Source: a virus | IMG/VR virus record: IMGVR_UViG_3300019776_000194 | Location: 1 to 64,000 of that record | Reading direction: 5' to 3' (one strand) | DNA length: 64,000 nt | Part shown: positions 54,862 to 64,000 of the stretch, in pieces | How the letters are laid out: every line of letters begins with the position of its first letter | How positions within the stretch are numbered: position 1 is the stretch's first letter | Made by a program: the position numbers and the translations under genes | Notes under the pieces: model-generated | What the model was told of the DNA's origin: nothing | What the model saw: only the letters and a program-made list of their open reading frames with translations | The model's database searches: none

Positions 54862-56373
54862 TCACCCCTTATTGTTAGCATTTTGTGCCGAATTGTCTTT
54901 TCCACCTTTATTAGATGTACTCGTACCACCATTGACAAGACCTGTCCCAACTGCCATACCCTCTGCGGAACTAGATGATTTACCTGCCAATGTGGTAGAT
55001 AGGTTATCAACGTCTACTGGTGCGTTTTCATCTAAAAGTTTGAATCCACCAATTTCACGAATCTTATTCAATACGTCGCGGGTAACTTCTATACCACCAA
55101 CACTGAACACACGTTGCACAAACTTGGAGAACTCTTCTAAACTTGTAGAACTGACATCTTTAAATTTAATTTGTGGAAGCTCTGCTAAGTCCCATCCGTT
55201 TAATGACCACAACTGCTGTACTAAATCCTTGTTCAATGCATTTGCAATTTCACCTAGTCTGTAACTAACAGCCATTGCTAGTAAATTTGTGTCACCATCC
55301 TGTAAACTCAACGACCCAGCAGTATCACTACCCATCTTGACAGCATCACATGACAACACAGACAAAATATTTGCTTGCAATGTCTTAATGATTTCGAGTA
55401 CATTATAGGCTTTACCGCCTTTGGACTCTAACAGTGATACATTGAATAGTTTGCCTTTAGTATCAGGGTCATAAGCCATTGGGAATACAATTCCTCGTTG
55501 CTGACCACTTGCTAAGTCATCTACTATCTTACGGCAAACCTCGTACATTGCTTTTTGGTCATCGGATGCGTCTGGAGCCATGTACTGCGGAGGAATCTCT
55601 AATAGCGGGAGTCCTTGTGTATCTTTGGCAACACCTGTCATCATATTATCTGTAAGCAATGTTAGTTGCTTATAAGCTAAATATGCTGCTTTCAGGATGC
55701 TGTTACCTTCTGGATTACCATTCGTAGGGTCTACGTTGAATAGGATGAATTTCTCACGAGGGATTTTAATTAGACCATTCTCGTCCATGAGGTTAGAGAA
55801 TCTATACCCATTTTCTAAGTTAGCTAGTGACTGAGATACACCGATAAGTTCTCTACCATCTTCTGAGAAGTTCCACTTTTCAATAGTAGCTTGAGGTCGT
55901 GTGCGTAATGCTTTAATACCTACAAGTCCATCGTTATACTTACTTCCGTTAGAACGTAAACGTCTGCGGTAGATTTTCTCTGAAATATGAAAGCCATATT
56001 CTAATACAGGGAAAGTGTTCTGCAATGTTTGCTGGAAAGTGTCTTCCATATCGTGCAGACAAGAATGTAAGAACTTCGCTCGTTCTCTATGCTTAGGACT
56101 ATCATCAAAAGGCTCTACATACATTTCTGCACGATTCATGAGCATTCTGATAGCATTCATCCCGATAGCCACGGGAGGTGACAACCTCATTTCATCTACT
56201 ACTTTGATCCTTGCTGGCATACGAAAAGCTTGATTAGCTTCTTCGTAAATTCTGCCATTAGAAGTTTTTATTACGTTAAATCCTTGCGCACCTAACTTAA
56301 TACGTGGTATAATAGTGCCACTGTCAGGTTGCAGAGCTGTTGAAACGCCATCAGGCGAGTTCGCTTCTGGCAT
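54862..56373 (-). CDS. portal protein
   Basis: 503 aa between terL and protease; YGFxxxEK, NPEGxSIL. Confidence 0.85.
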   Translation of the reverse strand: MPEANSPDGVSTALQPDSGTIIPRIKLGAQGFNVIKTSNGRIYEEANQAFRMPARIKVVDEMRLSPPVAIGMNAIRMLMNRAEMYVEPFDDSPKHRERAKFLHSCLHDMEDTFQQTLQNTFPVLEYGFHISEKIYRRRLRSNGSKYNDGLVGIKALRTRPQATIEKWNFSEDGRELIGVSQSLANLENGYRFSNLMDENGLIKIPREKFILFNVDPTNGNPEGNSILKAAYLAYKQLTLLTDNMMTGVAKDTQGLPLLEIPPQYMAPDASDDQKAMYEVCRKIVDDLASGQQRGIVFPMAYDPDTKGKLFNVSLLESKGGKAYNVLEIIKTLQANILSVLSCDAVKMGSDTAGSLSLQDGDTNLLAMAVSYRLGEIANALNKDLVQQLWSLNGWDLAELPQIKFKDVSSTSLEEFSKFVQRVFSVGGIEVTRDVLNKIREIGGFKLLDENAPVDVDNLSTTLAGKSSSSAEGMAVGTGLVNGGTSTSNKGGKDNSAQNANNKG

Positions 56374-56414
56374 GTTTATTGCTCCTTGTAATGCTTATTA
56401 TGTTTATGGTCGTA

Positions 56415-56443
56415 ATTATACCACAAAAGTGTCTTGTTGTCAA
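56415..56443 (-). promoter_or_regulatory. consensus sigma70 promoter for portal operon
   Basis: Minus strand TTGACA-17-TATAAT with TG extension. Confidence 0.85.
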
Positions 56444-56461
56444 GATGTTTCTGTAGTATGA

Positions 56462-58133
56462 TTATATAGTTGGTATTGGGGATGGTCTAGTAAAGGACGG
56501 TAAACTGAAGGTCGGAAGTGTGTGGGTTCGCATCAACGCCTTACATGCCGTACCAGTTGCGTCCCAATAATCGTCCTTCTGCTGTCGCTTTCCATCTACA
56601 AAATCTTCTAATTCTGATAACAGTGGCTCAGTATCCCAACTTCCATCATCTAGAATTTTGACAAAACCTGCCTCAGCTAATGTCAAGAATGGCTGCATTC
56701 TGTGTAGTTTACTTTTTGTACCGCCAGACTTATCAATTCTTGCATCGACACCAGCTTCAATTAATGTCTTAACAAAAAACATAGTGGCTGCTTTAGCTGC
56801 TACACCTACGTCTTCAGGTAAGTACACTGCAGGTGAATGTCCTATAGCCTTATCTCTACGGTCTGTTTCTGCAATGTGTTCCATTACACCGTTAATTAGA
56901 GACCTGTATCGTTCTCCGTGATGGATAATGTAATAGCCCGATTTTGTCTTAGACATCATTACAGATGCAGTCCAGTCAGGGTCTGGATAAGCTTCAGAAG
57001 GTAAACTACCTGCAATATCCATACCACGAACTGTTGCTACAATGTCATCAGGAAGTTCTGTAATTACTTCGCACCAATCTCTTTTAAAAAATCCTCTTGA
57101 CTCTTCTTTCGCATGCCACGACCCTAAGTAGAGACGTTCACGTTCAGTGCGCTTCAAGTTCTCCAAACGAGCTACGTAGTTTGGATTCAAGATTTTCATG
57201 ATGGGGTTATCTTTAACCGTAGCAGAAATATAAGTATATGTTTGAGCTTGGATTTTATCTCCATACTTCTCAATCAACTCTTCTTTTGTATCTGCTGTTA
57301 CTGTCACACCGCCATAAGTAGCGTAGTATCTCTCTTTACCAGACAATTCAGGAATGGGAATACCTGTTTCCATATCTAAATACGGCTGTACGAATTGGTA
57401 AAGGTAGGAGGCTCTTGATGGGTTAGCTGTACAGATAAGTTGGTGAGGAGCTTGTGCTTTAGAGCGAATACGAGACTCTAGGTATTTGATTTGAGTTTCA
57501 CTATGCCATTGAGCTTCATCGAAACAAACTAGTGAGAATTGCCCACCGTCAAAGTTGTTAATATCCCTATCTGCTTGACACACTTTAAACTGCACTTGTG
57601 CTCCACTTGGGAATGTGGCTGTCATCTGTGGATGTGTCTTAAACTTTGCTCCGTAATCTTTCCACATATCTTGTGCTTCCATGAACAAACCACCAGCTTG
57701 TGAAAGCTGTGTGGATGTCTCACGAATGAATACACCTCTAAAATATGGGTCGTGAATGTATTTTAGAATTAACATTAACGCTTGGTGCGATTTGCCAGAA
57801 CCTGCCATCTGACGTATTCAAAAGGGGTCGTTACACCCTTCCCGCTTTATTCAAGCTGCTGAAAGTCGCCTTTCAGATTAGACTATATCTTCTGACTCCC
57901 CTGTTTCCACTCACTTGAGTGTACGGCTTTCGCCTAGTCGTTGAACCTTCCTGCAAACAGGCTTGGCTGCGGATTGTCTCTGTGAGAGTTTCCCGCAATT
58001 GAAGGGATGTTTTTAACGTGGAGGCACAGGATTATCTACCACCACCGAATATCACGAAATTAGACTTGCAATTCAGAAACTTCCTGTGAGCTTCTGAAGC
58101 AGGTGCTAATACTTTACGTTCTTTTTTGCTCAT
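56462..58133 (-). CDS. terL: terminase large subunit, two exons (58133-58038 and 57805-56462; 479 aa spliced)
   Basis: Splicing restores Walker A FGGG|AGSGKS; Walker B FDEA, TANP coupling motif, nuclease GMDIA...DDYWDA; AAGGAG RBS before 58133. Confidence 0.92.
57806..58037 (-). mobile_element. group I self-splicing intron, 232 nt, no ORF
   Basis: P AATTGCGGGAAA, Q AATCCGCAGC, R GTTCAACGACTA, S AAGATATAGTCT; P1 with U.G pair; P10 CCUGU/GCAGG; terminal G. Confidence 0.92.
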
Positions 58134-58220
58134 TTTACTCCTTTAAATTCTGATAGCACACCACACTAACCTTGCTGCTATCTTAGGAGAACATATCTTC
58201 TCCTCTCACCTCAAAACAAA

Positions 58221-58314
58221 ATTGCAAACAGAACGGCTCTACAACGTCACAGGAGAAAGCACGAAGGAGGAGAACGTGCCAAGGAGAATGACGGAGAGCC
58301 GTTGTATTTACAAT
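58221..58314 (-). ncRNA. putative structured small RNA displaying three UUCUCCU (anti-SD-like) segments
   Basis: Nested stems AUUGUAAA/UUUGCAAU, AACGGCUCU/AGAGCCGUU, CGUCA/UGACG, GCACG/CGUGC; a G.U pair favours the minus strand. Confidence 0.6.
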
Positions 58315-58372
58315 CTAAAGAGGTTTATAAGGAACTCCTCAATCCTACACGATGGCTGCAACCTACGAATAT

Positions 58373-58445
58373 TGGATGCGGTCGCCTGACTTGAACAGGA
58401 CTGAAAGCTTATGAGACTTTCGTGCAACCTTTACACTACCCCGCA
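58373..58445 (-). tRNA. tRNA with CAU anticodon (Met or Ile2), imperfect acceptor stem
   Basis: D arm GTGT/GCAC, anticodon arm AAAGT-CTCATAA-GCTTT, T arm CCTG-TTCAAGT-CAGG, encoded CCA. Confidence 0.75.
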
Positions 58446-58536
58446 ATTGTTCTTGCAGACCTCTCATCTACTCGTATGTTTTAATCTAAACATATAAAAT
58501 CAAGGGTTGGCTGATTCCATCCCATATTCTTTACAA

Positions 58537-58911
58537 TTAATCAACTTCAGCGATATTCTCAAAATCTAAAAGTGGTTGACTTTCATCATCTTCATCATTA
58601 TCATCTACAATAATACCGCCATTACGTTGAATACTTAAAAGCAACTCATGATGTTTTGCTGCAAACTCTTTATTCCTAGCTTTCTCAGCAGACTCAACTT
58701 TAATAGACTCCATGTGCATAGTCATAAGAAACTTTGCTGCTTCCATCCTATCTTTCCTACTTGCTGTAGGGTCATCTCTTACAGATACCAAGTATGCCAT
58801 AGATGGTTTATTTTCCTTGTTTAGCAATCGCTTCTGTATAGTAATCGAGTTCTTCTTGCTCTGAACACCTGTCCTTACTATCTCTCCTACTGAATTATCT
58901 ACATCACTCAT
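58537..58911 (-). CDS. putative terminase small subunit
   Basis: First gene of late arm, upstream of terL; helical with acidic tail. Confidence 0.5.
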   Translation of the reverse strand: MSDVDNSVGEIVRTGVQSKKNSITIQKRLLNKENKPSMAYLVSVRDDPTASRKDRMEAAKFLMTMHMESIKVESAEKARNKEFAAKHHELLLSIQRNGGIIVDDNDEDDESQPLLDFENIAEVD

Positions 58912-58943
58912 ACATCTCCTGCTATTATTGTTCTGTTACGCTC

Positions 58944-58972
58944 ATTATACATACAAGATAGTCGTTTGTCAA
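58944..58972 (-). promoter_or_regulatory. consensus sigma70 promoter starting the morphogenesis arm
   Basis: Minus strand TTGACA-17-TATAAT. Confidence 0.85.
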
Positions 58973-59014
58973 GCCCCTTGCAAGAATATTAACAAATTTC
59001 TTAGAAGAAAGCAC

Positions 59015-59043
59015 TTGATTTTATTCACTTTGGGTGCTATAGT
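59015..59043 (+). promoter_or_regulatory. divergent sigma70-like promoter
   Basis: TTGATT-17-TATAGT with TG extension. Confidence 0.6.
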
Positions 59044-59075
59044 TTAATTTCTAGAAATGCTGACAAGGAAATTTA

Positions 59076-59285
59076 ATGGATAACACTATTGAAATTACAA
59101 AACATGGAGATTGGGAAGTAGCAACAAAGAAATGTAAACTTGGGTATACTTCATGGGCAAAGAGGGGTAAAATTCAAGGAACAAATGCCGTAAATGAAAC
59201 AGGACAACATGTATGGTTCAATTTTGGTAATACTCGTGAAGAAGCTCGTAAAGCAATAACAAAAGAACTCAATATAGGAGAATAA
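59076..59285 (+). CDS. hypothetical protein
   Basis: AAGGA RBS after promoter. Confidence 0.65.
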   Translation: MDNTIEITKHGDWEVATKKCKLGYTSWAKRGKIQGTNAVNETGQHVWFNFGNTREEARKAITKELNIGE

Positions 59286-59385
59286 TATGGAAGAATACAC
59301 AGAATTAGAATACCTAGATGTAAACGACTTTGTAGAGCACATGCTCGAAGAAGATGAATTTGATAATTAATAGAAAGGAAACACA

Positions 59386-59694
59386 ATGCAAGAAAAAACA
59401 ATCACAGGAATGAACTTTGTACGCTTCATGCACGAAGTAGTATCAGCAGTAGAATCTGGCTATACACTCACACTGGAACCTCAACACGCTCCTGTAGGAT
59501 ACCCAAATTACAGTGTTACACTCGTACAATTGCAAGAGGATGAAAGCCTGTCAGTACAAGAGAAAGCAATTCTACAGGAGGTGGTAAATGAAACTAAAGA
59601 GGAAGTTCCTGCTAAAGAAGTTCCAAATACTACTAAAGAATCTCCTGTCGAAGAAGCTCCGAAGAAACAGCAAGGACGACCTGCAAGGAAATAA
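59386..59694 (+). CDS. hypothetical protein with basic GRP tail
   Basis: AAAGGAAA RBS; ends KKQQGRPARK. Confidence 0.65.
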   Translation: MQEKTITGMNFVRFMHEVVSAVESGYTLTLEPQHAPVGYPNYSVTLVQLQEDESLSVQEKAILQEVVNETKEEVPAKEVPNTTKESPVEEAPKKQQGRPARK

Positions 59695-59695
59695 A

Positions 59696-59860
59696 ATGAA
59701 ACGTGTAACGTATCGTCTTGATAACGATGTCTATGACGTTGTAGAAACTACATCAGAATGGCTACTTATCGAATACACAGACGATGATTTTAATACAACT
59801 CTGAAACTAGAGTCTCACAAATATAGAAAGGAAGATGACGATGGGGGCGACAGCCGTTAA
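59696..59860 (+). CDS. hypothetical protein
   Basis: AAGGAAA RBS before ATG 59696. Confidence 0.55.
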   Translation: MKRVTYRLDNDVYDVVETTSEWLLIEYTDDDFNTTLKLESHKYRKEDDDGGDSR

Positions 59861-60092
59861 TGAAATCACTGGTAAGATTATTAAAAGTGGTGTAGACAAT
59901 TACAAAGACTATTGTGCTAATTTTGATTTGATTGGCAGTGGTGTACAGTATAAGCAACCTGAGACATTGTTTCCAGTAACTGTGCGAATTCCTAAAGATG
60001 TGTATAAAGCTTTCACAGAATTAGCAATTGAAACTGGAACAACTTTAGAGAAGTTGTTAGAGAAACAAGTTCTTAGTAATTTTAATAAATAG
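59835..60092 (+). CDS. putative ribbon-helix-helix DNA-binding protein
   Basis: C-terminal VTVRIPKDVYKAFTELAIETGTTLEKLL. Confidence 0.55.
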   Translation: MTMGATAVNEITGKIIKSGVDNYKDYCANFDLIGSGVQYKQPETLFPVTVRIPKDVYKAFTELAIETGTTLEKLLEKQVLSNFNK

Positions 60093-60160
60093 TATTTTGT
60101 AGTAATAGCCAAGTATGCATCAAGTGCTTGGCAGTTTAACTTTAATGTGGAGGTATCTAC

Positions 60161-60901
60161 ATGGCTCGCGTAATTAGCAAAAAAACTAAAAAATCCCCTG
60201 AAACTGCACCTGTAATCAAAGAGAAATTCTTGGAACAGCGTAAACTTGAAATTGAAAGTAAACCAATTGTTCCGATGAACGAACGGCAAGCCGAATACTT
60301 CAAAGCTATCAAAGACTATGATTTGATTGTTGCAACAGGTTTCGCAGGTTCCTCGAAGACATTTATTGCAACTTGTATGGCTGCAGACGCATGGCGAACA
60401 GGGGTTTGTAATAAGATTGTACTTACTAGACCCTCTGTGTCAGACTCTAAGAGTCTTGGTTATTTTGGTGGTGATAAGGACATGAAAGTGAAGAACTGGA
60501 TTATGCCAATGTTATCTGTGTTGTATCAACGCATGGGTAAAGATGTAGTTGATGAAGCAATTGCAGATGGTAATATTCAACTACAGCCTTTAGAGACAAT
60601 CAAAGGGATGAGTTATGGAAGAGGTACATGGGTTATAGCGGATGAAGTCCAAGACTGCAAGATTTCTGAAATTAAGTCTATTATCACTCGTGGTGGTGGT
60701 TGCAAGATGATTTTATGTGGAGATGTTGCACAATCTGCTTTAAACAGTGATAGCGGGCTTGCCATTTTTTCAAGAATTATTGAAAAGAATCCTCGCTTAA
60801 AAGAGTCTGTGGCACGTATTGACTTTGACTCTTACGAGCATATTGTACGCAGTAAGACATGTAAAGATTTGATTATTGCATTTGATAAATCAGGGTACTA
60901 A
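60161..60901 (+). CDS. phoH: PhoH-family ATPase
   Basis: GFAGSSKT, LTRP, LGYFGG, DEVQD, GDVAQS, IVRS motifs. Confidence 0.9.
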   Translation: MARVISKKTKKSPETAPVIKEKFLEQRKLEIESKPIVPMNERQAEYFKAIKDYDLIVATGFAGSSKTFIATCMAADAWRTGVCNKIVLTRPSVSDSKSLGYFGGDKDMKVKNWIMPMLSVLYQRMGKDVVDEAIADGNIQLQPLETIKGMSYGRGTWVIADEVQDCKISEIKSIITRGGGCKMILCGDVAQSALNSDSGLAIFSRIIEKNPRLKESVARIDFDSYEHIVRSKTCKDLIIAFDKSGY

Positions 60902-60902
60902 C

Positions 60903-61700
60903 ATGAAGATGTCCTCCGCACAACAGAAATCTATCAAAACAAAAGCTACCTTTCTTGGAAAAACTTTTAAAAGTAAAGACTGTGGGGATTTTACAGTATT
61001 AGACTATTTAAATTCTAAACAGGTACTCATACAATTTAATAAAACAAAGTCTCAAAAATGGTGTGAATTGAAAGCAGTCAGAAGTGGCGGTGTTAAAGAC
61101 CCTAATTTCCCATCTATATACGGAGTTGGATTTATAGGAGAGGGTGAATTCTCTTCTAGATTTGTGGGCGGTGCAAATACACCGTGTTATGACTCATGGA
61201 GAGGGATGCTCAGACGTTGCTACTCTGAAGAAAGTCTTATTAAAAGTCCTACTTATGCAGGATGCTCTGTGGCAGAAGAATGGCACAACTTTCAAAACTT
61301 TGCTGCATGGTATTATGAAAACTTAAAAGGTGTATCTGGAAAAGTTCACCTAGATAAAGACATTCTCAAGAAAGGGAACAAGATTTACTGCAAAGAAAAT
61401 TGCTGCCTTGTTAACGTCCAAATCAATTCATTATTTACTGGAGCTAGTATAGTAAATAGGGGTAAGTACCCACTAGGGGTGTTTCTAAGGAAAAGAAATG
61501 GAATGTTTGTTGCGCAAGTAACTAAAGGAAATGGTGCGCAGGAATTTTTAGGTGAGTATAATACACCTGAACAAGCTTTTTATGTCTATAAAAAGCACAA
61601 AGAAGATTTTGTAAAGCAAGTCGCAAACAAGTACAAAGACAGTATTAGAGAAGATGTTTATTTAGCTCTAATGAACTACACTGTCTCAATCGAAGATTAA
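60903..61700 (+). CDS. HNH-type homing endonuclease
   Basis: YGVG, WRGMLRRCY, YAGCSVAEEWHNFQNF, LDKDIL, FLGEY; paralog of the 20359 ORF. Confidence 0.8.
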   Translation: MKMSSAQQKSIKTKATFLGKTFKSKDCGDFTVLDYLNSKQVLIQFNKTKSQKWCELKAVRSGGVKDPNFPSIYGVGFIGEGEFSSRFVGGANTPCYDSWRGMLRRCYSEESLIKSPTYAGCSVAEEWHNFQNFAAWYYENLKGVSGKVHLDKDILKKGNKIYCKENCCLVNVQINSLFTGASIVNRGKYPLGVFLRKRNGMFVAQVTKGNGAQEFLGEYNTPEQAFYVYKKHKEDFVKQVANKYKDSIREDVYLALMNYTVSIED

Positions 61701-61709
61701 GGAGAACCC

Positions 61710-62483
61710 ATGAAAGAAAAATTCAACAAACAATTAGCTAAGAACCCATTCTTTGACGATAACAAAGTCCCTGTTAGCTATTCTCCAAGCAAATGTGGGC
61801 GTTTCACTGTAGACATCTATGACTATATCGAATCTCCTTCACAGTTCTCCGACATGATAGATGCCCTAGGTATGATGGAGCAAGATGATGAAATGGTAGT
61901 TAATTTACAATCAGGTGGAGGTTGTCTTAACACTACTGATACACTTCTACATGCTCTACGTAAGACAAAGGGACAAGTTCACTTTATTGCTACAGGATTC
62001 AATGCCTCTGCTGCAACAATTCTCTTGCTGGACGCACCATCCTTTGAACTCAGTGAAGACTTCACAGCTCTGATACACTGTGGGTCGCTTGGAGACGCTG
62101 GCAACTTAAATGAGATGCGCCAGAGTGCAGCTTTCCACATCTCACGTATGGAGAAATTGTTACGTAATACTTACGCTGGATTTATGTCTGAGAAAGAAAT
62201 TGAAGACATGCTGAATGGCAAGGATTTGTTACTTGATAGTGAACAGTGGTGTGAACGACACGAACAGCGCAACAAGTGGATGCAAGAGCAAGTAGAGAAG
62301 TTCGAGAAGGCTGCTCAGAAGGCGTTAAAAGCCCCTAAGAAACCACGTAAGAAGAAAGTTGATAGTGAGGTAGCCAAAACTGATACGAAGGCTTCTGAGA
62401 GCTTTAAAGGCTTGGAAACAGGCTTTGATATGCCAGAAGAAGAGTTGATGTTTTTGGAGAAAGCTGTAAATACTAAGAAGTAA
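61710..62483 (+). CDS. ClpP-like protease
   Basis: SGGG, ASAA (catalytic Ser), LIH, D pattern. Confidence 0.75.
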   Translation: MKEKFNKQLAKNPFFDDNKVPVSYSPSKCGRFTVDIYDYIESPSQFSDMIDALGMMEQDDEMVVNLQSGGGCLNTTDTLLHALRKTKGQVHFIATGFNASAATILLLDAPSFELSEDFTALIHCGSLGDAGNLNEMRQSAAFHISRMEKLLRNTYAGFMSEKEIEDMLNGKDLLLDSEQWCERHEQRNKWMQEQVEKFEKAAQKALKAPKKPRKKKVDSEVAKTDTKASESFKGLETGFDMPEEELMFLEKAVNTKK

Positions 62484-62487
62484 TTTA

Positions 62488-62523
62488 GAAGCCTGCTACT
62501 TAACTGTAGCGGGCTTTTATTTT
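62488..62523 (+). terminator. Rho-independent terminator
   Basis: AAGCCTGCTAC/GTAGCGGGCTT stem followed by a T-run. Confidence 0.8.
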
Positions 62524-62536
62524 ATGGAGAATTATG

Positions 62537-62565
62537 TTGACAAGGATAATTGAGTTGTGTAATAT
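62537..62565 (+). promoter_or_regulatory. sigma70-like promoter
   Basis: TTGACA-17-TAATAT. Confidence 0.6.
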
Positions 62566-62604
62566 ACGTGCTGTCGCTGTGACAAACAGTTTAAAGGGGG
62601 AAAT

Positions 62605-62802
62605 ATGATTTGGATTGTCTTATACTTAGTGTCTAGCTTAATAACATTAATTCTAATTATAAAAGAGGAATATGATAGAGGTATTGATTTGAAATTAGGT
62701 TGGTTACTGCTGTTTATTATAGTCTGCCTTGTTCCAATTGTAAATTTAGCTTGGTTGAGTAGTGTCAGAGAAATAACTATTTTGAAAGGAAAGAAACAAT
62801 GA
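62605..62802 (+). CDS. small two-TM membrane protein
   Basis: Two hydrophobic segments, PIVN motif. Confidence 0.6.
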   Translation: MIWIVLYLVSSLITLILIIKEEYDRGIDLKLGWLLLFIIVCLVPIVNLAWLSSVREITILKGKKQ

Positions 62803-62956
62803 ACGTGTATTACTATTACAGGAAACAAGACGGAACACTAGGTAAATTACTGGATGAATCTCCAGAGGCTATCGAGAATATTGATGATACATTAGCATTT
62901 GCTAAAGAGGAGTGGAAGTCTACTCGTGTGTTGGCTGTTATTGAAGGGGGTAAAGA

Positions 62957-63253
62957 GTGAGTAAAACATTACAGGAGCGTGCTATAAATAAACTTAACTC
63001 TATGACTTCAGATGAATTAGTAGAATCAATGAGAAAGCACGGATTTAAATTTGAAGGAGATGAAATGACTCGAAAACTAGCGACTGTCAGAGATTTACAC
63101 AAACTCTGTACCTCGTTAATTGAAGATGGATTTATAGAGGCTGAATTATCATTTAATGATGAATATGGAATAGACTTAGGAGATTTTGGTTACATAGACT
63201 ATGAAGTATTCAAATCTGTAAATGGTAAGACATATATTGATATTCAACCTTAA
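62957..63253 (+). CDS. hypothetical protein
   Basis: ORF with G-rich RBS, GTG start. Confidence 0.6.
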   Translation: MSKTLQERAINKLNSMTSDELVESMRKHGFKFEGDEMTRKLATVRDLHKLCTSLIEDGFIEAELSFNDEYGIDLGDFGYIDYEVFKSVNGKTYIDIQP

Positions 63254-63262
63254 GGAGAGCGT

Positions 63263-63565
63263 ATGAGTTACAAGCACGTAAAACTATTAACAGAAGCTGT
63301 GAAGCTTCCTCGTACAAAAGCTAATAACGACCAGCTCTGCACAAAGATTGAAGAGATCATTGCTTCTGTGCAATACACTACTAAAGAATACACATATACA
63401 CAAGGACGACAGCTCAAGAATATGATATGCTTGTGGATTACTGATAATATGACGACAGTAGGTATGACTTTTGAAGCTACTAAGCAATTTAAACAAGGCA
63501 CGACTCGCGTTAAGTGGGTTGAGAGTGTACTAAAACCGTTAGCATTACAATTGGAGGATTTATGA
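63263..63565 (+). CDS. hypothetical protein
   Basis: AAGGAG RBS. Confidence 0.65.
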   Translation: MSYKHVKLLTEAVKLPRTKANNDQLCTKIEEIIASVQYTTKEYTYTQGRQLKNMICLWITDNMTTVGMTFEATKQFKQGTTRVKWVESVLKPLALQLEDL

Positions 63566-63990
63566 TTAAAGAGTTTCAAGGGGAGTTCCGCTGGTTGAGT
63601 AACTTCACACAAGTTGCTATTGAGCTAGACGGTAGAATGTTTCATTCTGTAGAACATGCCTATATGTCTGCTAAAAGTGATGATGAAGAGTGGAAAGACT
63701 TTTGTGAGAATACTTTCTCAGCAGGGCAAGTGAAGAAAGCCAGTAGAAGCATTACTTTGGTAGATAATTGGGAAGATATTAAAGTAGATATCATGCGGGA
63801 ATGTATAAATCAAAAGTTTAACCAGCCATTCTTTAAAGCCAAACTACTAGCAACTGGAGATACCATCATTCAGGAAGGTAACATGTGGAATGATAAATTC
63901 TGGGGAGTTTGCCTTAAAACAGGTAAAGGACAGAATATCTTAGGAAAGCTCATAATGGAGAAACGAGAGTCTTTGAAAGGTAATAAATGA
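63562..63990 (+). CDS. NADAR (YbiA-like) family protein
   Basis: LSNF, SVEHAYMSAK, W...K..IM, KFxQ, LLATG, DKFWG, GQNxLGKLIM motifs. Confidence 0.9.
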   Translation: MIKEFQGEFRWLSNFTQVAIELDGRMFHSVEHAYMSAKSDDEEWKDFCENTFSAGQVKKASRSITLVDNWEDIKVDIMRECINQKFNQPFFKAKLLATGDTIIQEGNMWNDKFWGVCLKTGKGQNILGKLIMEKRESLKGNK

Positions 63991-64000
63991 AACCAGAATC

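Follow-up and report, generated by a model that had tools for sequence, protein, structure and literature searches.

A short group IA intron that lacks P2 and P8 and splits the Walker A motif of a phage large-terminase gene

The stretch of DNA analysed here, which we call the window, comprises positions 1 to 64,000 of the metagenomic virus record IMGVR_UViG_3300019776_000194 in IMG/VR (84,394 bases, rated 98% complete). Its large-terminase gene (terL) lies on the minus strand, is followed by a Mu-type portal gene, and is divided into two exons by an intron of 232 nucleotides (nt), the only group I match in the whole record. A megablast search of the region against named phages gave no match, and the nearest named large terminase (TerL) is ~40% identical. 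The gene is laid out as follows, with (-) for the minus strand and protein lengths in amino acids (aa):

58138..58143 (-): Shine-Dalgarno sequence AAGGAG, 4 nt before the terL start codon (from the sequence)
58038..58133 (-): terL exon 1, 32 aa, ending FGGG with the first two Walker A residues (protein 100% identical to the N-terminus of the uninterrupted homologue L001)
57806..58037 (-): group IA intron, 232 nt, without a homing-endonuclease open reading frame (ORF) (Rfam RF00028, 74.3 bits; boundaries from uninterrupted homologues)
57806 (-): terminal intron G (omega G), the final base of a misleading ATG (sequence; comparison with relatives)
56462..57805 (-): terL exon 2, 447 codons and a stop codon, product starting AGSGKSH... 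(Pfam Terminase_6N/6C, PHROG 979, homologues)

The splice boundaries were derived from homologues without an interruption. Past FGGG, the frame of exon 1 reads AGA TAA, so that the second intron codon is a stop, as the initial annotation of this DNA had stated. Homologues of 472-484 aa run ...NFVIFGGGAGSGKSHQ... unbroken across the predicted junction (FGGG|AGSGKS). In L001, both exons are contiguous and intron-free, and their products are 100% (exon 1) and 97% (exon 2) identical to those of the window. The claim that the intron splits the terminase Walker A motif at GGT|GCA is thereby borne out, with the junction between Gly32 and Ala33 inside G-G|A-G-S-G-K-S. Only a single placement of the boundaries is possible, because the first A of the intron differs from the first G of exon 2, and the last T of exon 1 differs from the last G of the intron. 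Both exons are intact, without a frameshift, and once spliced they would encode a TerL of 479 aa with an intact P-loop.

The final three intron bases form an ATG (57808..57806) in frame with exon 2. The resulting ORF, 57808..56462, encodes 448 aa with Terminase_6N and Terminase_6C domains and matches the PHROG 979 large terminase. A strong ribosome-binding site, AAGGAG, precedes the exon 1 ATG at 58133, and there is no comparable site before the internal ATG. The database cluster identical to the window product (P0001) is the truncated 448-aa form, which shows that gene callers took the internal ATG, as had also been predicted.

The proposed group I identity was checked with the Rfam covariance model RF00028 at a cut-off of 50 bits. 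The model matched 58060..57859 on the minus strand over its full length (positions 1-253) with 74.3 bits and an E-value of 5e-17, and the P, Q, R and S stretches that had been noticed by eye aligned to the consensus. The core elements, in 5' to 3' order and with the pairing data from the structure alignment described below, are:

58008..58017 (-): J1/3 single strand, no P2 hairpin (sequence and alignment)
58002..58007 (-): P3 5' strand UCCCUU, partner 57902..57897 (100% paired, 5 of 6 pairs compensatory)
57966..58000 (-): P element with the P4 5' strand, P5 hairpin (57988..57978), and Q element with the P4 3' strand (Rfam alignment, covariation)
57945..57967 (-): P6 and P6a (covariation)
57935..57946 (-): R element and P7 5' strand GACUA (Rfam alignment; P7 100% paired, 3 of 5 pairs compensatory)
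57925..57934 (-): P7.1 hairpin with a GAAA loop (97% paired, 3 of 3 pairs compensatory)
57908..57921 (-): P7.2 hairpin (100% paired, 4 of 5 pairs compensatory)
57897..57902 (-): P3 3' strand AGGGGA (covariation of P3)
57893..57896 (-): 4-nt linker GUCA in place of the P8 hairpin (Rfam alignment, relatives, 13-nt gap against L002)
57880..57891 (-): S element, consisting of J8/7 and the P7 3' strand (Rfam alignment, covariation)
57859..57876 (-): P9, 7 base pairs (bp), with a GCGA tetraloop (6 of 7 pairs compensatory)
57822..57856 (-): P9.1 (57856..57844) and P9.2 (57840..57822) hairpins (covariation)

The secondary structure was tested on an alignment of the window intron and eleven relatives from the same TerL family (n = 12), using a structure written from the window sequence. 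As controls, the 3' partners were slid by 1-3 columns, and covariation was also compared with 500 shuffles. Bases were paired in 94.4% of the 620 cells, against 33-46% in the slid controls, and 38 of the 52 pairs showed changes on both sides; none of the 500 shuffles reached the observed covariation score. All of P3, P4, P5, P6, P6a, P7 (tested as a pseudoknot), P7.1, P7.2, P9, P9.1 and P9.2 were supported, and every core helix was 81-100% paired with compensatory pairs. A chance resemblance is excluded by the Rfam E-value and the covariation. The presence of P7.1 and P7.2 between P7 and P3' places the intron in subgroup IA, and the G-C pair of P7 beside a bulged C would be the expected guanosine site.

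A P2 hairpin is absent from all twelve introns, in which 10 unpaired nt join the guide to P3. The window intron does not contain an endonuclease ORF either; the longest internal ORF on the same strand is 41 aa and overlaps the core. The intron owes its shortness to the lack of an ORF, of P2 and of P8. Its earlier description as minimal and very compact thus holds as far as it is short, but it is not the shortest of its own family, in which relatives of 221-231 nt exist.

P1 and P10 were examined apart from the other helices, anchored at the splice sites of the same 12 introns. Their strands are:

58038..58045 (-): P1 5' strand, exon sequence GUGGUGGU; its U 58038 is paired as U.G at the 5' splice junction (relatives covary at -7/-8)
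58018..58025 (-): internal guide sequence GCCUCCAC, the P1 3' strand (pairing with the end of exon 1)
58026..58030 (-): P10 5' strand CCUGU, partner exon 2 57805..57801 (+3 pair changes from U-A to A-U in L037 and L041)

Both helices form in 12 of 12 introns, with compensatory changes at -7, -8 and +3. P1 consists of U.G at -1, G-C at -2/-3, a U.U mismatch at -4, G-C at -5/-6, and pairs at -7/-8 that covary among U-A, C-G and A-U, so that 7 of its 8 positions are paired. The initial annotation correctly had GCCUCC (58025..58020) pairing with exon GGUGGU through a terminal U.G, but overlooked the internal U.U at -4 and the extension of the helix to -8. This mismatch (window 58041 and 58022) is kept in 11 of the 12 introns; in the remaining one, L041, the U is missing from the guide, and the base at -4 of the exon forms a bulge. 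The exon base at -4 is a free third codon position at which A would be possible, yet U.U is kept. The pairing of CCUGU (58030..58026) with GCAGG at the start of exon 2, proposed earlier, stands: P10 has five pairs, one of them G.U, and its +3 pair follows the exon, being U-A with GCA and A-U with GCU. GGTGGT precedes the splice site in 11 of the 12 intron-bearing alleles, and in the twelfth the guide has changed to match. Intron-free alleles offer 22 distinct contexts for comparison, of which only 2 have GGTGGT in the register of insertion site A, used by the window intron, and only 4 in the register of site B, 3 nt upstream. We take this coupling of exon and guide as a sign of an intron in use.

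An unusual feature of the window intron is the lack of P8, a helix that group I introns normally have as a component of their conserved P3-P8 domain. The Rfam alignment reduces P8 to G-U-C in the window intron. In 10 of the 12 aligned introns P8 is a hairpin of 13-17 nt with 3-5 bp and often a tetraloop; it is missing from the window intron and from L038. The intron of L002 occupies the same site and is 79.5% identical; in the P8 region, the window intron differs from it by one 13-nt gap. A displaced P8, in the form of one of the two hairpins after P7, was considered and rejected, as relatives carry both of these hairpins plus P8. We treat P8 as a conserved, non-catalytic element, and its absence as a variant rather than as exclusion from group I.

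Further introns of this kind were sought by a scan for a short spacer from P3' to J8/7. The scan returned 30 loci, which were sorted by inspection and also included P8 hairpins with a GAAA loop and three non-intron sequences. Nine of the 30 are P8-less introns of the window type (L082, L083, L084, L095, L085, L108, L100, L106 and L103). Those of L082 and L083 likewise interrupt the Gly-rich codons of the P-loop, in two further terminases; those of L085 and L108 share one 251-kb contig, and L103 is the contig of L038. L142 has a further P8-less intron in a terminase. A second scan, for the guide plus J1/3, was unspecific, with two introns (L082, L142) among 119 matches. Altogether, the P8-less form was seen at thirteen loci (the window, L038, L082, L083, L084, L085, L095, L100, L106, L108, L142, L294 and L311). 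Within the wider family, the short form makes up 5 of the 104 distinct P7-to-J8/7 segments among the matches listed (L082, L083, L084, L294, L311); the P8-less state is a recurrent minority. Most P8-less introns have a linker resembling ACUUA. When five P8-less introns were analysed alone, 95.4% of their cells were paired and 24 of 48 pairs were compensatory, part of which changes may predate the loss of P8. Literal full-text phrase searches found no description of a P8-less group I intron; such a description may be in print under other wordings or in subscription journals, which these searches could not reach.

Commonly, the L2 loop has its receptor in P8. Contacts of L2 with P8 and of L9 with P5 are described for the yeast bI3 intron in PMC2813881. 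A plausible explanation of why the loss of P8 is tolerated is the absence of P2, since an intron without P2 would have no L2-P8 contact to keep, while the GNRA loop of P9 is retained.

Two of the P8-less introns, in L084 and L095 (L095:2045-2301), occur in a B12-dependent class II ribonucleotide reductase at GG|VRR. They have the same GCCUCC guide, follow GGTGGT, and have the Pfam domain RNR-II_ins_dom upstream. L084 carries a long, ORF-containing insertion in place of the P5/P6 region. Outside the window's TerL family, P8-less introns in terminases and in the reductase usually stand behind GGUGGU.

We consider it very probable that the element is a genuine ORF-less group IA intron in the Walker A codons of terL that is spliced by standard group I chemistry. 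Our confidence is high for the identity of the intron and for its junction, and moderate for splicing without help. In the proposed course of the reaction, the guide GCCUCCAC would form P1 with the final eight bases of exon 1, placing U.G where cleavage occurs, and an external guanosine bound at P7 would attack the 5' splice site. The terminal G would then occupy the guanosine site, P10 would align exon 2, and ligation of the exons would yield the 479-aa TerL with its intact P-loop. Splicing would be required in vivo, because terL is essential and both exons are intact, and we infer that it proceeds without P8. It is also a sound expectation from the sequence that DNA packaging depends on splicing, as the product of exon 2 alone would lack a strand and the first P-loop glycines.

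Several points weigh against this interpretation. The tested structure was derived from the window's own sequence and is thereby somewhat favoured over the slid controls. The minimum-free-energy fold of the intron alone is no better than that of shuffled sequences (z -0.96); it recovers P4-P6 and P9 but not the pseudoknotted core, and single-sequence folding does not model pseudoknots. Without P8, autonomous catalysis is not assured. Furthermore, L038, the other P8-less member of the TerL family, has an A where the terminal G is expected, so that its intron may be defective. Finally, spliced RNA was not seen: a search for sequencing runs gave no strong match (best share 0.19), and four public runs (three DNA, one RNA) yielded no joint, neither from spliced RNA nor from an intron-free DNA form, a result that says nothing either way.

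Contigs from other public freshwater runs, which may not be independent of the source sample of the window, match the element: X3 bridges the boundary between exon 1 and the intron without differences, and X1 covers the P8-less linker without an insertion. A marine metatranscriptome contig from an RNA library (X20), covering the equivalent of window 57855..57981, has a P8-less core with a linker of the L082 type. It may be excised intron RNA or contaminating DNA.

Among the other explanations, the one that survives best is that a real intron, after the loss of P2 and P8, depends on a phage or host protein or on conditions in vivo to fold and splice. It fits the absence of P8, and it has precedents: several Bastillevirinae introns were spliced in infected cells but not in vitro (PMC11878797), and a protein stabilises the L2-P8 and L9-P5 contacts of the yeast bI3 intron (PMC2813881). 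However, the remaining core is intact and covarying, the loss of a P8 that spans only 3-5 bp in relatives is a small step, and no candidate gene for a cofactor was identified; we therefore regard this dependence as rather improbable. It is far less probable that the intron is a dead remnant, in which the loss of P8 abolished splicing and left a broken terL in a defective phage. The missing conserved helix and the irregular 3' end of the P8-less L038 intron would be in line with such decay. Yet the exons are free of frameshifts in a record that is 98% complete, and the exon keeps the GGTGGT needed by the guide. Moreover, P8-less introns occur at thirteen loci and, L294 and L311 apart, in essential genes of different phages, and the helices are maintained among the five analysed together. 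Production of the terminase without splicing, as two polypeptides of 33 and 448 aa from two start codons, can practically be discarded, even though an in-frame ATG used by gene callers precedes exon 2, as this ATG lacks a ribosome-binding site, the P-loop would be severed, the 232 nt in between are a covarying ribozyme, and the ATG lies one codon earlier in relatives with the intron at site B and is lacking in other relatives.

A spliced group IA intron, as we favour, can be compared with several known systems. The T4 td and Twort orf142 introns (subgroup IA2) also carry P7.1 and P7.2 between P7 and P3' and also lie in phage protein genes, but unlike the window intron they have P2 and P8, and td has an endonuclease ORF as well. 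The Azoarcus tRNA-Ile intron, at ~205 nt the textbook small group I ribozyme, is likewise small, ORF-less and self-contained. In contrast to the window intron, however, it belongs to subgroup IC3, lies in a tRNA gene, and relies on L2-P8 and L9-P5 tetraloop contacts. Contacts of this type are those documented for bI3 in PMC2813881. Terminase P-loop inteins (L025, P0026, P0111) share the insertion region with the window intron but splice as protein rather than as RNA.

The genes terL, DNA polymerase and ribonucleotide reductase are usual intron targets in phages, as stated in PMC3984707 and PMC11878797, and the latter also reports group I introns in the large terminases of SIOphi and other Bastillevirinae. 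As an intron in terL the window intron is therefore of an ordinary, known kind, which standard tools detect. It departs from this kind in its core without P2 and P8 and in an apparent choice of GGUGGU sites by the guide. The terL of Escherichia phage JohannBauhin is annotated as a joined coding sequence. Like those of the Bastillevirinae, its intron is an IA-like ribozyme with the P7.1/P7.2 layout and the R and S elements of the window intron, but it has a clear P8 hairpin and a long P5/P6 insertion. An endonuclease ORF is present in 32 of 45 Bastillevirinae introns (PMC11878797), and compared with the known phage terL introns the window intron differs in having no ORF, no P2 and no P8, and in lying in the Walker A codons. 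An intron of Bacillus phage phiNIT1 (L112), directly after a coding sequence annotated as the N-terminal part of the ribonucleotide reductase alpha subunit, is ~70% identical over 200 nt and has the same helices, but differs by a 5-bp P8 with a UUCG loop and by its host gene and guide. Reductase introns of phiNIT1 self-splice in vitro according to PMC11878797, although the intron tested there may not be that of L112. P8 is kept in both named relatives inspected (phiNIT1 and JohannBauhin), which are 2 of 430 matching phage records.

The Walker A codons of this TerL family are frequently interrupted. Eighty IMG/VR loci were fetched with a TerL alignment, of which 46 match both exon probes; the other 34, only 33-37% identical and matching neither probe, were left out. 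Among the 46 loci, 27 are uninterrupted and 19 are interrupted within eight Walker A codons (corresponding to window 58046..57790). Site A (GGG|A) is that of the introns of the window, L002, L014, L037, L038 and L041. Site B (GG|G) is occupied in nine loci by closely related ribozymes with the same guide, and site C, after the first base of the Ser/Cys codon, in L003, L032 and L042, each with a guide matching site C. In L033 the intron lies at yet another position. In L025, a 233-aa in-frame insertion between GK and T of Walker A gives weak Hint matches and can be read from its sequence as an intein; P0026 and P0111 are intein-bearing forms with LAGLIDADG/Hom_end domains. Hence, these codons are a hot spot with at least four intron sites plus an intein. 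At its gathering score, RF00028 missed the introns of L026, L033 and L038 and the site-A intron of L037 despite their good alignment, and L041-L080 lay outside the Rfam scan.

At site A, presence and absence occur among close relatives: L001 (97% identical TerL) lacks the intron, and L002 (96%) has a 245-nt version. Exon 1 of the window differs at 2 of 96 nucleotides from that of intron-bearing L002, against 18 of 96 from that of intron-free L001, a pattern consistent with co-conversion of the intron and its flank or with their common descent. From the guide to P7.1, the window intron is nearly identical to the intron in another terminase (L082:8253-8478), and from P7.2 to its end to that of L002 (L002:1330-1574) except for the missing P8. 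Judged from these stretches, it looks like a recombinant mosaic.

Some relatives have features of their own. The introns of L038 (L038:2283-2503) and L033 (about 2226-2500) start with G and have A at the terminal-G position, with G as the next base in the exon. This implies either a shift of both cuts by one base, which would put G at the end of the 5' exon, or a terminal A; both would be irregular for group I. L037 carries a second group I intron (L037:2608-2827, Rfam 52.1 bits) around codon 70 of terL, ~110 nt beyond the first. This second intron may explain database proteins of 394-406 aa that start with MEA... or MW....

The window intron would spread without an endonuclease of its own. 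Possible routes are recombination during mixed infection, help from a free-standing endonuclease, and insertion at the RNA level at sites that match the guide. Introns with the GCCUCC guide follow GGUGGU in two TerL registers, 3 nt apart in Gly-Gly-Gly, in three other terminase lineages, and in the class II ribonucleotide reductase, whose insertion site is not homologous to those in terminases. The occurrence of one guide at several GGUGGU sites is what reverse splicing, that is insertion at the RNA level, predicts; to our knowledge, natural cases of reverse splicing have seldom been documented. For the two TerL registers, recombinational sliding within the GGT GGT GGT repeat is an alternative to guide-directed insertion. 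We offer only tentatively the proposal that these introns form a natural set of ORF-less group IA ribozymes of ~220-260 nt that work without P2 and P8 and whose sites are set by the guide rather than by an endonuclease.

The endonuclease gene nearest to the intron is a free-standing HNH gene at 60876..61700 on the plus strand (PHROG 953, E-value 3e-64; also PHROG 2081), beside phoH at 60161..60901 (plus strand). It lies 2.7 kb away on the opposite strand and is a candidate for a helper in intron mobility, but nothing links the two. Just upstream of terL, Rfam reports a tRNA at 58377..58444 on the minus strand (35.6 bits), with an anticodon loop that reads CAU, and ARAGORN found no tRNA within 56000..64000. 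Relatives have tRNA clusters at the equivalent place, and the window element may be a decayed copy.

One consequence concerns annotation, as gene calls truncate the TerL of the window phage and of many relatives. In a hand count of the best 120 homologues listed, 68 were of 451 aa or shorter and 49 were of full length; introns at or close to the Walker A codons account for part of the short entries, and contig ends for some. If P8-less group I introns are naturally maintained, the P3-P8 stack would be dispensable once P2 is gone. These introns would then also serve as a minimal IA scaffold, ready to be compared with nearly identical relatives that have P8, such as that of L002. The P-loop, with one guide at several GGUGGU sites and with four intron sites and an intein in eight codons, is a natural test bed for how endonuclease-free introns choose and change their sites.
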